Translations under genes and position numbers: made by a program | IMG/VR virus record: IMGVR_UViG_3300011113_000238 | Location: 1 to 64,000 of that record | Source: a virus | DNA: 64,000 nucleotides | Strand: one strand, 5' to 3' | Notes under the pieces: model-generated | The model's database searches: none | What the model was told of the DNA's origin: nothing | Seen by the model: the letters and a program-made list of their open reading frames with translations, nothing else | Part shown: in pieces, positions 6,224-20,914 of the stretch | Layout of the letters: each line of letters starts with the position of its first letter | How positions within the stretch are numbered: the first letter of the stretch is position 1

Positions 6224-6302
6224 TAGGACTAGACCGGCCAGTCGAAAGTAAGTTCCCTAGCTTATTGTCCTATCATTTATACTATTAGGGTTTATTTAGG
6301 GA
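6224..6302 (+). promoter_or_regulatory. Three-way-junction RNA leader, copy A
   Basis: P1 TAGGAC/GTCCTA, linker TA, P2 GAC/GTC, linker GAA, P3 AGTAAG/CTTATT; loop TCCCTAG complementary to RBS TTAGGGA. Confidence 0.6.
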
Positions 6303-6306
6303 TATT

Positions 6307-7323
6307 ATGGGAATTTTTACAGACCTGATTTACAAAGAAAAACGCCAAACTGAAGCAGATTTTACTAAGTCAACGTTTGTGCGTAAGTTAGACAAAGATA
6401 ATGGCGAGTTTATTTTAGAATGTGGTCATACTAAGACAACATCTTTTCGAAATATGAAAGCTGGTACTTTCACTTGTATAGAATGTCGAGAGTGCTCAAT
6501 AAAACAGGAAGCTCTGGATAAAGGAGTCATTTGTCTAGATGAACACCCTTGCGGTACCTACAACAATTACTACTTTCCAGAGTGCGGTCACACCCGAAAA
6601 ATGGCAAGATGTAATGTAAAATCAAGTGTAGATAAATTACAATGTAGTCTCTGTTTCAATGAAATGCTTTTACGCGGTGCTATTAAAAACAATTTAACTA
6701 TACTCGATGTTAAATCTAAAACATCACACCGCATCTGTAAATTTGCATGTTGTGGACTAGAAAAAGCTGTGGCGGTTGAGTCGCTGCGAGGAACTGTAAG
6801 GTGTCCGATTTGTTACAGGAAATGTATTGACGAGGATGTCGAAAACACATCTGGGTTAAAAATAAATAAGTCTAAAAAAGAACACATTCGGCACCATAGG
6901 TATTTTATATTACCGTGCGGTCATGAGAAGCACATGTCCATTCAACACGCAATTATCGGTAGCTATTCGTGTAGAGAATGTGGGAAATCCAAGCTAGACT
7001 TACCGAGTCGTTTGTACCTGATTAAAGTAGAGTCTATGGGGTATGAGTGGTTAAAATTTGGCTATGGACACTCAATAAGTAAAAGAATAAAAGAATACGG
7101 ACTTATTGACGGAGCAAAAACAGAGGTCATCTGCGACATTATTGTTGAAACAGGTGAGCAAGCCCGAGACTATGAAAAAGCGGTTCACTCTAAGTATAAG
7201 AGTTTGAAACTGGACAAGAGTCTCATGCGCAACTATATGCGAATAGGGGGATTTTCAGAATGTTATCCAATGTCAGCTAAAGATACATTGTTGCAAGAAC
7301 TAAACAGTTGCCCATTTAAATAA
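6307..7323 (+). CDS. Homing endonuclease-like protein: repeated Zn ribbons plus C-terminal GIY-YIG/T5orf172-like domain
   Basis: Repeated CGH...CxxC units; LYLIKV...WLKFGY...KRIKE and GFSEC motifs. Confidence 0.7.
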   Translation: MGIFTDLIYKEKRQTEADFTKSTFVRKLDKDNGEFILECGHTKTTSFRNMKAGTFTCIECRECSIKQEALDKGVICLDEHPCGTYNNYYFPECGHTRKMARCNVKSSVDKLQCSLCFNEMLLRGAIKNNLTILDVKSKTSHRICKFACCGLEKAVAVESLRGTVRCPICYRKCIDEDVENTSGLKINKSKKEHIRHHRYFILPCGHEKHMSIQHAIIGSYSCRECGKSKLDLPSRLYLIKVESMGYEWLKFGYGHSISKRIKEYGLIDGAKTEVICDIIVETGEQARDYEKAVHSKYKSLKLDKSLMRNYMRIGGFSECYPMSAKDTLLQELNSCPFK

Positions 7324-7333
7324 AAGGAATAAG

Positions 7334-8806
7334 ATGGAAGAACAATTTACACTAGCACCAGCATCTGTCCCACAAGAGCAATTCTTATCGTCTGATTCCA
7401 AGATTACCCTATATGCCGGATCAGCTGGAGCAGGTAAGACGTTCGCTATCATTATTAACCTTGTCAAATTTGCTTTAAAGAAGAACACTACCGCTGTAGT
7501 CTTCCGCAGAACCAGTACGCAGCTTCGGCAGAACGGTGGTATCTGGGATGAAGCTACGATGGTCTTTAAGAAGATGTTTGGTAAGGGTGTTCAGATTCGT
7601 AACAGAGAGATGGAAATATACATCCCTGCTACAAACGCTAAGATTAAGTTCTCGCACCTTCAGTATCAATCGGATATTATGAGTCACCTCGGTGCTCAGT
7701 ACAGTTTGATTATTTTCGATGAAGCTACACTCTTTCCATTTGAGGAAATGATCCTACCGTTGATTGGTCGTTTGCGTAACGCCAATGTGGATTATGTACC
7801 GCAGATGATGTGGGCCACCAACCCAATGTACAATCACGGTATTTATCACTGGATCAAAGAGTTCTACCTTGACGAATACGGTGTACCTTACGATGATAAA
7901 TCAAACGTAGAGCGTTATTTCGTACTGCAGAACAACAAACCGATCTGGTACGACAATCGAAAAGAAGCAGAAGCTATTCACGGTTCCGGTAAGGATTCAC
8001 CTGTTCAAAGCTTCCGAGCAATTAAGGCTCACATCAGTCAGAATATACCTCTGCTGAAAGCTAACCCTGACTATATCGCTAACTTGAAGGCTTTACCTGA
8101 GATTAAGCGAAGAATCTTCCTGGATGGCAGCTGGACTGCTCGTGAGGAAGAAGCCGGTCTGTTTAATCGCACGATGGTTACTATGGTTGACCATCCGAAT
8201 ATCCGAGCTAAGAAAAGAGTTCGTGCGTATGACTTGGCTTCGCAACCTGTATCGACTCAATCTCCGAATCCTGACTGGACTCGTGGGGTATTACTTTCCA
8301 AAGATGATACTGGTATTTATACCGTTGAAGATATTGTTAGCTTGCGAGATAGACCGCACGTTGTGCAGGAACTAATTTACAACACTGCACGGTCAGATGG
8401 TAACTCAACAGTAGTTAGTTATCCTATTGATCCGGGTCAAGCAGGTATCGCACGAGCCAATGAAATGAAAAGAGACTTGGCAGAAATGGGTGTTTCATCT
8501 AAGATGATCCGACCTAATAAATCCAAGCGCAGTCGTTTCCTTGCTTTCTCTGCGATTGCAGAGGCAGGTTTTCTGAATGTAGTCAGAGCGGATTGGAACG
8601 AGGAATTTTTCAATGAACTTGAAGAATTCACAGGATTGAAGCGAGGTGAGCGAGATGATATGTGCGATTGCTGCAGCGATGCTGTGCTAGCGTTGAATCA
8701 GACGTTGGAACTGCCGTCATTCTCCCTCCCAGACCTTAGCATGACACCCACCTATAGCGTAAATCCAAACAGTAGCATCCCATTAAGCGGTGTAACAATC
8801 CCATAA
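7334..8806 (+). CDS. terL: Terminase large subunit
   Basis: Walker A AGSAGAGKT, Walker B LIIFDEA, nuclease motifs RAYDLAS and DDMCD. Confidence 0.95.
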   Translation: MEEQFTLAPASVPQEQFLSSDSKITLYAGSAGAGKTFAIIINLVKFALKKNTTAVVFRRTSTQLRQNGGIWDEATMVFKKMFGKGVQIRNREMEIYIPATNAKIKFSHLQYQSDIMSHLGAQYSLIIFDEATLFPFEEMILPLIGRLRNANVDYVPQMMWATNPMYNHGIYHWIKEFYLDEYGVPYDDKSNVERYFVLQNNKPIWYDNRKEAEAIHGSGKDSPVQSFRAIKAHISQNIPLLKANPDYIANLKALPEIKRRIFLDGSWTAREEEAGLFNRTMVTMVDHPNIRAKKRVRAYDLASQPVSTQSPNPDWTRGVLLSKDDTGIYTVEDIVSLRDRPHVVQELIYNTARSDGNSTVVSYPIDPGQAGIARANEMKRDLAEMGVSSKMIRPNKSKRSRFLAFSAIAEAGFLNVVRADWNEEFFNELEEFTGLKRGERDDMCDCCSDAVLALNQTLELPSFSLPDLSMTPTYSVNPNSSIPLSGVTIP

Positions 8807-8823
8807 TTAAAGGAGCCTAACTA

Positions 8824-19863: not shown

Positions 19864-20409
19864 ATGTCAGTCAAAGTCAGTAACGCAAATGAAGTAGCTA
19901 GTGAAATACTTGACTATAAAACTGAGGTTGAACGCAAACTCAGAGGTATGGTAAGTATGTTTGCTTATGCCGCTACCAGAGCAATCCAAGAGAAAACACC
20001 AATCGGTGATCAAGCTAGTATTGATGCTGGTGAGTTAGCAGCTAACGGTCCACAGAAGGCGTACTACGAATTGTACTCCAAGCGAAACGATCGCTTTGGC
20101 ATCGGTGGTGGAGATGATATTGAAGTTGGATTCCATAGAGGTGCGTTCGGATATAGCGAAAGTGGTAACTTTCAGTTTGTACCTATCGTAGTGGACGAAC
20201 TAACTGCTGCGGAAGACCTGCAAATGGACGTAGAAGCGTACTATGCAATCGGTGATAAGTTCTTCATCGGTGCAGAAGGTCCGGGTTATTCAGCACTGGA
20301 AGCTGGTAGTTCTACGCAAGCACCTGATGGTATTAGCGGCCCTGCTATGCAAGTCATATCGGACATATATCGCATGGACATGAAAACATACTACGACGCA
20401 AGTAGATAA
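19864..20409 (+). CDS. HK97 gp10-like tail completion protein
   Basis: TPIGD and Y..LEAGSSTQAPDG motifs. Confidence 0.65.
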   Translation: MSVKVSNANEVASEILDYKTEVERKLRGMVSMFAYAATRAIQEKTPIGDQASIDAGELAANGPQKAYYELYSKRNDRFGIGGGDDIEVGFHRGAFGYSESGNFQFVPIVVDELTAAEDLQMDVEAYYAIGDKFFIGAEGPGYSALEAGSSTQAPDGISGPAMQVISDIYRMDMKTYYDASR

Positions 20410-20420
20410 TAAAGGAAAGT

Positions 20421-20825
20421 ATGTCAATCGTTCTAATTAAGAAAGCACTGCAGAAACATCTGGATACTATGCCTTCGTTGGCTACTGCCTATTCGTCGGC
20501 TAGCTTTACTCCCGTTCAAGGTATTCCCTATCAGAGAGTGCAGCTTATCCCAAGACAACCTGAGAATCCCACGTTCGGTGATTCTTATTACAGAGAAGTT
20601 GGATCATTCCAAATCTTCCTAGCTTATCCTAGTAATAAAGGTGAATCGCAAGTGCTCGAAAGAGCAGAGTTAGTTCAAAAGCATTTCGCTAGAGGAACTA
20701 CATTAACAGAAGGTGCAATCGAGGTTAATATCCTCAGAACACCTCAGATTGCAGGCAGTACTATCGCAGGTGATAGAGTCATAGTGCCGGTGATTATTCA
20801 GTATTCTGCTGGAGTTATGGTATAA
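20421..20825 (+). CDS. Tail terminator-like protein
   Basis: G.FQIFLAYP..KG...AELV..HF.RG motif; position. Confidence 0.7.
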   Translation: MSIVLIKKALQKHLDTMPSLATAYSSASFTPVQGIPYQRVQLIPRQPENPTFGDSYYREVGSFQIFLAYPSNKGESQVLERAELVQKHFARGTTLTEGAIEVNILRTPQIAGSTIAGDRVIVPVIIQYSAGVMV

Positions 20826-20833
20826 TTACAGAA

Positions 20834-20910
20834 TAGGATAGGGGGCACCCGACAAGACACTTCCTAGAGTGTCTTCCTAGTTCTTTCATCTAGGCATTAT
20901 TTACTAGGAA
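20834..20910 (+). promoter_or_regulatory. Three-way-junction RNA leader, copy C
   Basis: P1 TAGGA/TCCTA, TA, P2 GGG/CCC, GACA, P3 AGACAC/GTGTCT; loop TTCCTAG complementary to RBS CTAGGAA; TGGTATAAT at 20818-26. Confidence 0.65.
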
Positions 20911-20914
20911 TAAT

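Follow-up and report, generated by a model that had tools for sequence, protein, structure and literature searches.

The three short leaders that precede nuclease-like genes in a single viral genome raise the question whether they are copies of one structured RNA and, if so, to which family this RNA belongs and what it does to the genes behind it. The DNA in question covers positions 1 to 64,000 of the IMG/VR virus record IMGVR_UViG_3300011113_000238. This whole stretch of 64,000 nucleotides (nt) is called the window here, and coordinates refer to it unless stated otherwise. The complete viral record is 84,110 bp long, carries direct terminal repeats, and has a G+C content of 43.5%; the window is its first 64 kb, and the metagenome runs containing parts of the window are labeled as freshwater, riverine, or similar. 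A preliminary description of the sequence had proposed a three-way-junction RNA at three positions (copies A, B, and C), interpreted it as a pseudoknotted cis-regulatory or endonuclease-associated RNA, and assigned it to no named family. As outlined below, the elements are divergent members of an existing family, int-alpA (Rfam RF02996), and they probably act as 5′-terminal cis leaders of the int-alpA type that control translation initiation of the following gene.

In each leader, a stem P1 (with P1′ as its 3′ strand) encloses the two hairpins P2 and P3, and the loop of P3, called L3, has two complementary sites downstream, the second of which lies at the Shine-Dalgarno (SD) region. The corresponding features, with minimum free energy (MFE) folds and the energies of the duplexes with L3, are:

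6224 to 6272, + strand: leader copy A, three-way junction in the MFE fold, with P1 TAGGAC/GTCCTA, UA, P2 with loop CGGCCA, GAAA, and P3.
6253 to 6260, + strand: L3 of copy A as read from the sequence, with TCCCTAG at 6254-6260.
6285 to 6290, + strand: site 1 of copy A, the proximal L3 complement TTAGGG (-7.1 kcal/mol).
6296 to 6302, + strand: site 2 of copy A, equal to its SD region, TTAGGGA with one G.U pair (-9.1 kcal/mol), ending 4 nt before the ATG.
18087 to 18100, + strand: extended -10 promoter-like box of copy B (TG at 18089-18090, TAGAAT at 18092-18097).
18104 to 18151, + strand: leader copy B, three-way junction in the MFE fold; 34.9 bits against RF02996 over 18101-18167.
18132 to 18140, + strand: L3 of copy B, holding TATTCAC.
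18161 to 18167, + strand: site 1 of copy B, GTGAATA, with 7 Watson-Crick pairs to L3 (-6.3 kcal/mol), covered by the 3′ tail of the Rfam model as pseudoknot partner.
18173 to 18180, + strand: SD region of copy B, TAGGAA, overlapping the 5-nt site 2 GAATA at 18176-18180 (-3.5 kcal/mol).
20816 to 20829, + strand: extended -10 promoter-like box of copy C (TG at 20818-20819, TATAAT at 20821-20826), overlapping the stop codon of the tail-terminator gene.
20834 to 20879, + strand: leader copy C, three-way junction in the MFE fold, retrieved by model R1, which contains copy A alone (see below).
20861 to 20867, + strand: L3 of copy C, TTCCTAG.
20889 to 20894, + strand: site 1 of copy C, TCTAGG (-7.4 kcal/mol).
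20904 to 20910, + strand: site 2 of copy C, equal to its SD region, CTAGGAA, with 7 Watson-Crick pairs to L3 (-9.4 kcal/mol), which also complements the 3′ strand of P1.

Folded in isolation, all three segments adopt as MFE structure the shared architecture described before, namely P1 - UA - P2 - GA(A/C)A - P3 - P1′. The 7-nt complementarities between the P3 loop and downstream sequence are all present as well, in copy A with one G.U pair. Since P3 comprises 8 bp and a loop of 4 nt in the MFE structures of copies A and C, the 7-nt loop represents an alternative register in these two. The additional, more proximal partner reported for A and C was found again, and copy B likewise possesses two partners, its second one being the 5 nt in the SD region. 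Site 1 offers 6, 7, and 6 pairs in A, B, and C, respectively, and lies 9-14 nt past P1′ in all cases. The leaders B and C had been placed about 7 nt behind an extended -10 box, and the boxes indeed end 6 nt (TGnTAGAAT) and 7 nt (TGnTATAAT) 5′ of the respective copy; no recognizable -10 box was found upstream of copy A. The thermodynamic z-scores of the three segments are modest (A -1.28, B -1.35, C -2.00).

Structures of this size might arise by chance, and this origin was ruled out by two types of searches. A structure descriptor, fitted after the fact, yielded four matches on both strands of the 84-kb genome, compared with a mean of 0.45 in 40 first-order Markov random genomes; the fourth match, at 1296-1343, is located inside a gene. 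For covariance models, a MAFFT alignment restricted to A, B, and C turned out to be structurally wrong, and models were therefore seeded from a self-alignment of copy A (R1) and from seven equal-register copies (R2). When R1, which contains copy A only, was searched with filters off against 128 kb (both strands of the window), copy C ranked second with 16.1 bits and copy B fourth with 9.9 bits, the third rank being taken by the reverse strand of copy A itself. R2 was built from seven copies of the window and of related phage contigs (such as L074 and L076, collected via the capsid protein), with copy A and the copy of contig L075 left out. Searched against 1.2 Mb, it retrieved both left-out copies, L075 with 37.4 bits and copy A with 19.5 bits (E 0.015). 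With a family-wide model (R3), A, B, and C were the only matches in the genome to score above 12.3 bits.

The related contigs carry the leader at syntenic intergenic sites, where R1 matched L076 and L079 with 30.7 bits and L074 with 23.1 bits, and further copies in L075, L078, L079, and L077 were found by inspection and with a looser descriptor. Among these syntenic relatives the stems vary by compensatory changes, and the UA and the GA-rich junction are kept. The leader of L074 combines P1 and P3 of the copy-C type with a P2 of the high-scoring type.

With regard to the family, a 15-kb Rfam scan gave 34.9 bits (E 4.3e-4) for copy B against int-alpA, just below the gathering score of 35.8. The RF02996 consensus shows the same junction and a 3′ tail matching the P3 loop, and copy B follows it line by line (P1 - UA - P2 - GAAAAG - P3 with a loop of about 9 nt - CCUG - P1′). 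In copies A and C the architecture and the UA are likewise present, with GAAA or GACA between P2 and P3 and no CU spacer between P3 and P1′. A 3′ tail complementary to the P3 loop is present in A, B, and C. Profile searches connect them to accepted int-alpA members via R1, R2, and those loci that pass RF02996: its gathering score was reached by 6 of 16 related loci scanned, with L076 and L078, the closest relatives in that set, remaining below it. Judged from sequence comparison, the three elements are to be classified as divergent, sub-threshold members of int-alpA. Such a match to an Rfam family had been named beforehand as the outcome that would take away the novelty of the elements, and most of it is indeed removed; the earlier statement that no named family applies no longer holds. 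At gathering score over the whole window, Rfam reported no int-alpA, and a profile search of the own genome with RF02996 gave no match at E ≤ 1, with a first-pass filter that differs from that of the cmscan run giving 34.9 bits. As an annotation issue, the Rfam model misses a large divergent share of the int-alpA family.

The name int-alpA refers to a location in prophages or satellites, between integrase and alpA. The window copies are not located in such an interval but flanked by terminase, major capsid, and tail-terminator genes, and their context consists of nuclease cassettes in a virion-structure operon; gene context was not used as a structural criterion for family membership. A further difference is that in copies A and C P1 itself mimics an SD/anti-SD pair, whereas the junction bases UA, GAAAAG, and CCUG and the L3-pairing tail are common to the consensus and the window type. 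The int-alpA RNA is reportedly one of 224 candidates of Weinberg et al. 2017. In the main text of that paper (PMC5737381), the word "alpA" occurs 0 times. Within the searchable literature, the term "int-alpA" appeared once inside an Rfam hit list and once as a gene order, and no functional study was found there, the original description presumably standing in supplements. The elements are new, divergent members of a known family that lacks a functional study in this searchable literature. Likewise, no published description of a second, SD-overlapping partner of L3 or of the hairpin P4 described below was found, supplements being outside this search. The present copies and their relatives put an orphan Rfam entry where an mRNA would begin, ahead of genes for homing endonucleases and DUF1376 proteins.

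Other RNA classes were rejected. A hammerhead, another ribozyme, or a tRNA-like element found no match, since Rfam gave only tRNA and int-alpA and the P1-P2 junction consists merely of UA. None of the Rfam 15 ribozyme/riboswitch models matched, matches at E ≤ 10 being restricted to int-alpA and one chance hit to a long non-coding RNA (lncRNA) model, and ARAGORN called no tRNA at the leader positions.

To obtain a broader view, IMG/VR was searched with a pattern of conserved junction bases, which gave at least 120 stretches; 80 loci are among the matches listed, and 75 of these 80 contain an R2 match at E ≤ 1, mostly with 40-62 bits. Structure statistics were calculated from 91 R2 matches (66 distinct rows). 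Standard pairs occupy 92.7% of the cells, compared with 69.7% after shuffling and 32-54% with a slid partner, and all 13 modeled pairs change on both sides (181 cells), values reached in none of 500 shuffles. As the rows were aligned by fitting them to the model, and certain bases were prescribed by the pattern, these pairing statistics lean toward structure.

Both partner sites of L3 covary with the loop across the family. Complements of at least five Watson-Crick pairs occur in the proximal region (+4 to +20) for 37 of 42 distinct loops, versus 10.8% for non-cognate combinations, and in the distal region (+21 to the AUG) for 30 of 42, versus 13.9%; the observed sum of neither region was reached in 2000 permutations over the 42 distinct loops. 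The AUG follows the end of site 2 at a distance of 1-12 nt (median 8). An SD-like 4-mer is contained in site 2 in 23 of 28 cases, compared with 7 of 28 for site 1. In addition, site 2 is flanked by a stem, P4, which comprises 5.18 bp on average in cognate and 3.74 bp in swapped combinations (0 of 5000 permutations). Of the earlier interpretation as a pseudoknotted cis-regulatory RNA, the covarying, pseudoknotted element with two covarying partners is therefore observed, and a regulatory effect is what we infer from it.

A TANNNT box ends 3-10 nt 5′ of P1 in 65 of 79 distinct upstream sequences, versus 13% at random positions, which indicates that the RNA probably starts at P1. As the -10 box lies upstream of the entire junction, transcripts from this promoter and read-through transcripts would both carry the leader. 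In 78 of 81 cases, the strand of the leader also holds the start of an open reading frame (ORF) 22-56 nt past P1′.

A structure that begins at or near the predicted +1 would also suit a protective fold, in which the junction and the pseudoknot between L3 and site 1 block 5′-end-dependent RNases and stabilize the mRNA, the likeness of site 2 to L3 being secondary. Flavivirus exonuclease-resistant RNAs are built in this way, with a three-way junction whose P3 loop pairs 3′ of P1, and the topology of the leaders may resemble theirs. A simple 5′ hairpin, however, would suffice for protection, and the covarying second complement of L3 that overlaps the SD would be left without explanation. We consider a purely protective role improbable.

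The P2 hairpins show a further regularity, as 4-nt palindromes (GGCC, TGCA, AGCT, GATC, CATG, and others) are found in the loops of 17 of 27 distinct hairpins, compared with 6.9 expected from shuffled sequences. In the window, the P2 loop of copy A (6235-6240, CGGCCA) is palindromic, and those of B and C contain no palindrome. Such loops are possible sites of loop-loop dimerization, judging from their letters. RNA-RNA contacts of this kind would be permitted as well in a trans-acting small RNA, i.e., if the junction RNA were released or terminated and L3 paired with site-2-like targets on its own or other mRNAs. The Rfam type of RF02996, "Gene; sRNA", agrees with this idea, and since copies A and C have L3 in common and the SD regions of both match it, cross-talk between them would be possible. 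On the other hand, no terminator or conserved 3′ end lies between the junction and the ORF start 22-56 nt further on, and the partners of L3 are cognate-specific and located in cis, so that action in trans appears to have only a small probability.

We return to the 5′-terminal cis leader as the probable explanation. According to this model, transcription would begin at P1 or a few bases away from it, with the leader's own sigma-70-type -10 box immediately upstream, and the RNA would fold into a compact three-way junction with the conserved junction bases UA, GAAAAG-like, and CCUG-like. L3 may then serve as an anti-SD-like loop presented on a rigid junction. It could pair with site 1, a "decoy" about 9-14 nt past P1′, which corresponds to the catalogued pseudoknot, or alternatively with the near-identical site 2 over the SD, usually within the small hairpin P4. 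Through an influence on ribosome binding, whose direction and whose selector between the two states we infer, pairing of L3 would probably throttle or switch translation and thereby keep the output of a selfish nuclease low or timed. The two loop-matching sites, one of them on the ribosome-binding site, make int-alpA a testable module of translational control.

Several observations weigh against this explanation. The pattern used for collection fixed several junction bases, the stems being free to vary, and because the sequences are related to each other, the shuffle and permutation counts given above are not probabilities. Start codons were assigned by a heuristic, and 5 of 42 representatives had to be dropped from the analysis of site 2 due to an uncertain start. 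In the 15-kb Rfam scan, copies A and C gave no match to RF02996 at E ≤ 10 and copy B stayed below the gathering score, and Rfam does not classify the family as cis-regulatory but as the small RNA type mentioned above. Moreover, in nested folds of the whole leaders A and C the junction is not the MFE structure; together with the unremarkable z-scores this means that the case rests on comparison, not on energy. Finally, copy B and many family members pair better at site 1, which lies outside the SD, and this stronger pairing (in copy B -6.3 versus -3.5 kcal/mol) might imply a constitutive pseudoknot with a free SD.

The choice between the two sites could also be governed by a ligand, which would refine the cis leader rather than replace it: the junction core would bind a small molecule, an ion, or a protein, and its occupancy would pick decoy site 1 or SD site 2. 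The junction bases are invariant or nearly so, all three stems covary, L3 and its two sites form mutually exclusive, covarying partners, and the same module precedes unrelated genes, as an aptamer joined to an expression platform would. SD-sequestering pseudoknot riboswitches and three-element translational switches (anti-SD, anti-anti-SD) operate with an anti-SD that has two exclusive partners, one of them the SD, and the leaders share this logic. Nevertheless, the collection pattern forced several junction bases in most sequences, the downstream genes (nucleases, DUF1376) hint at no ligand, and the junction is very small (2 + 4-5 + 0-2 nt). It is much smaller than known three-way-junction aptamers and showed no sequence or model match to them in the Rfam scans. 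A ligand-operated switch is thus rather unlikely. The same doubt applies to a broader version, in which an invariant core would sense a small molecule or a factor of host or phage origin and toggle L3 between decoy and SD, with dimerization through the P2 loops as a possible addition. If this were true, the leader would be a portable, promoter-linked switch that times selfish nucleases and DUF1376 replication-module genes in phages and satellites.

For a translational leader, the nature of the following genes is of particular interest. Those in the window are:

6307 to 7323, + strand: gene after copy A, encoding 338 aa; the protein has four repeats of the CxxC type and resembles T5orf172/MUG113 in its C-terminal region, its nuclease identity being a lead only.
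18184 to 19014, + strand: gene after copy B, with HNH_3, a sub-threshold AP2 match (18.9 bits, cut-off 33.3), and, by eye only, an N-terminal motif similar to GIY-YIG.
20915 to 21721, + strand: gene after copy C, a homing endonuclease with NUMOD3 (E 2.2e-13) and a sub-threshold GIY-YIG match (20.3 bits, cut-off 22.6).

The GIY-YIG-like domains that had been ascribed to all three genes could thus be retained only in part, as a sub-threshold match beside NUMOD3 for copy C and as a motif seen by eye for copy B. The gene after copy A gave just a sub-threshold match to MUG113 (E 0.0098) and none in PHROG or NCBIfam. The nearest Atlas clusters, of the T5orf172/DUF723 type, are a lead only. GIY-YIG and HNH Pfam models run over the genome gave no match. 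Across the family, the 80 distinct downstream proteins include 33 with DUF1376, 22 with HNH_3, 8 with AP2, 4 with GIY-YIG, 3 with NUMOD3, and 2 with NUMOD4, as well as singletons such as DUF927, ParB_N, ClpP, and others. The leader is therefore common before genes of the homing-endonuclease type, yet not specific to them. This is also apparent from the genome itself, where at least four other HNH_3 genes lack a leader:

2280 to 2840, + strand: leaderless HNH_3-type gene.
55080 to 55991, - strand: leaderless HNH_3 gene whose GGAG SD is paired to an arm further upstream in a long hairpin at 55994-56045; this hairpin encloses an extended -10 box at 56020-56033 (- strand).
57821 to 58681, - strand: leaderless HNH_3-type gene.
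65728 to 66381 (genome coordinates), + strand: leaderless HNH_3-type gene, sub-threshold match of 20.4 bits.

Counting these further genes, the phage has at least 7 nuclease-like genes, and 3 of them carry the leader. Also, at 72 IMG/VR loci with distant nuclease homologues (71 of the copy-C nuclease, one of the copy-B nuclease, and none of the copy-A gene), no descriptor match occurred and R2 produced only noise at E > 3, which indicates that the leader does not track nuclease protein families at long range.

At shorter range, the leader travels inside mobile nuclease cassettes. The leader of L074 lies 3′ of the tail-terminator gene and before a homologue of the copy-C nuclease with 66% identity, and those of L076 and L079 are likewise found 3′ of the tail-terminator gene, before different nucleases; leaders of L076 and L077 also occur 3′ of the capsid gene. 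As had been suggested, the RNA moves together with the cassettes: the tail-terminator/tube junctions of L073 and L077 are empty, containing neither cassette nor leader, and metagenome contigs that join across the cassette lack the leader as well. These contigs connect 20815 to 21762/21780 without cassette C, and in run X2 the cassette-C-free joint reaches a depth of 20.1, compared with about 6 for the cassette-bearing contig. In an 83.5-kb contig (X3), 18113-19012 is swapped for 1201 other letters, the break lying inside the junction, after 18112. Such contig variants (runs X2, X3, and X9) come from relatives and show that the forms exist, not at which rates. A segment of L073 (7089-7181) with the promoter and first P1 bases of a copy-B-type cassette fused to the last 31 nuclease codons is a deletion remnant of such a cassette.

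A word like TTTGCAAAT is conserved 5′ of the tail-tube gene in the window (about 21723-21749), L073, L074, L076, and L077, i.e., at occupied as well as empty sites, and marks the 3′ boundary of inserted cassettes. The leaders at 4312-4359 of L076 and 3628-3675 of L079 are identical, but the nuclease ORFs behind them differ, as do the start positions; leader and ORF are thus exchangeable independently.

The location inside a mobile cassette and the natural break of the X3 variant within the junction would be in line with an element that is specifically tied to the endonuclease, be it a ribozyme that cleaves itself, a transcript to which the cognate nuclease binds, or a signal for homing or recombination at the DNA level. 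This is very improbable, however, given the 33 of 80 downstream proteins with DUF1376 and further non-nuclease proteins, the occurrence of one leader type with different nuclease families, and the absence of ribozyme family matches in the Rfam scans. Self-cleavage and binding of the cognate nuclease, both raised earlier as possibilities, thus found no support; the genes behind this one type of leader encode proteins of unrelated families. In addition, the leader always lies on the gene strand and at a fixed spacing to the AUG, which argues for an action on translation at the RNA level and against such a nuclease-specific partner.

For cis leaders that control translation, the closest functional comparison is offered by the homing endonuclease genes of the T4 type (I-TevI, I-TevII/III, mobE of Aeh1, and segB), for which hairpins sequestering the ribosome-binding site are documented in section 29 of PMC3014915. 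Like these hairpins, the leaders have structured RNA around the translation start, which would keep nuclease synthesis down, and a promoter in or at the structure, and exactly the simple hairpin design is found at the HNH gene 55080-55991 (- strand) of the present genome. In the leaders, by contrast, the anti-SD is a hairpin loop on a three-way junction, its pairing would take the form of a pseudoknot or kissing contact, for which the target is present twice, and the leader is a sequence family that also precedes non-nuclease genes. SD and AUG buried in a hairpin with the promoter inside, which in the T4-type design makes only transcripts from this promoter translatable, were not found at the leaders, since the SD of the leaders pairs with a loop and not with a hairpin arm.

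All three leader copies fall into the virion-structure region. Copy A has a 127-aa ORF on one side and on the other the 338-aa ORF, behind which the large terminase gene follows; copy B lies 3′ of the major capsid gene, and copy C between the tail-terminator and tail-tube genes. Translational control by the leader would suggest how mobile nuclease cassettes may sit in essential late operons without harming the phage. Among named phage records, a megablast search with window 5800-8800 found no match, and the large terminase subunit (TerL) reached at most 49.5% identity in tblastn, to Limnohabitans phage DC31. A blastn search with the leader of a further locus, L099, gave a single match, to an uncultured record.

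Independently of the leaders, ARAGORN predicted a 99-nt "tRNA-Pyl" with the anticodon CTA at 51049-51147 (- strand), beside a tRNA-Arg(TCT) at 51349-51424. At gathering score, Rfam reported only the Arg tRNA of this pair, and the CTA-containing sequence might be either an amber-suppressor-like tRNA or a false call.

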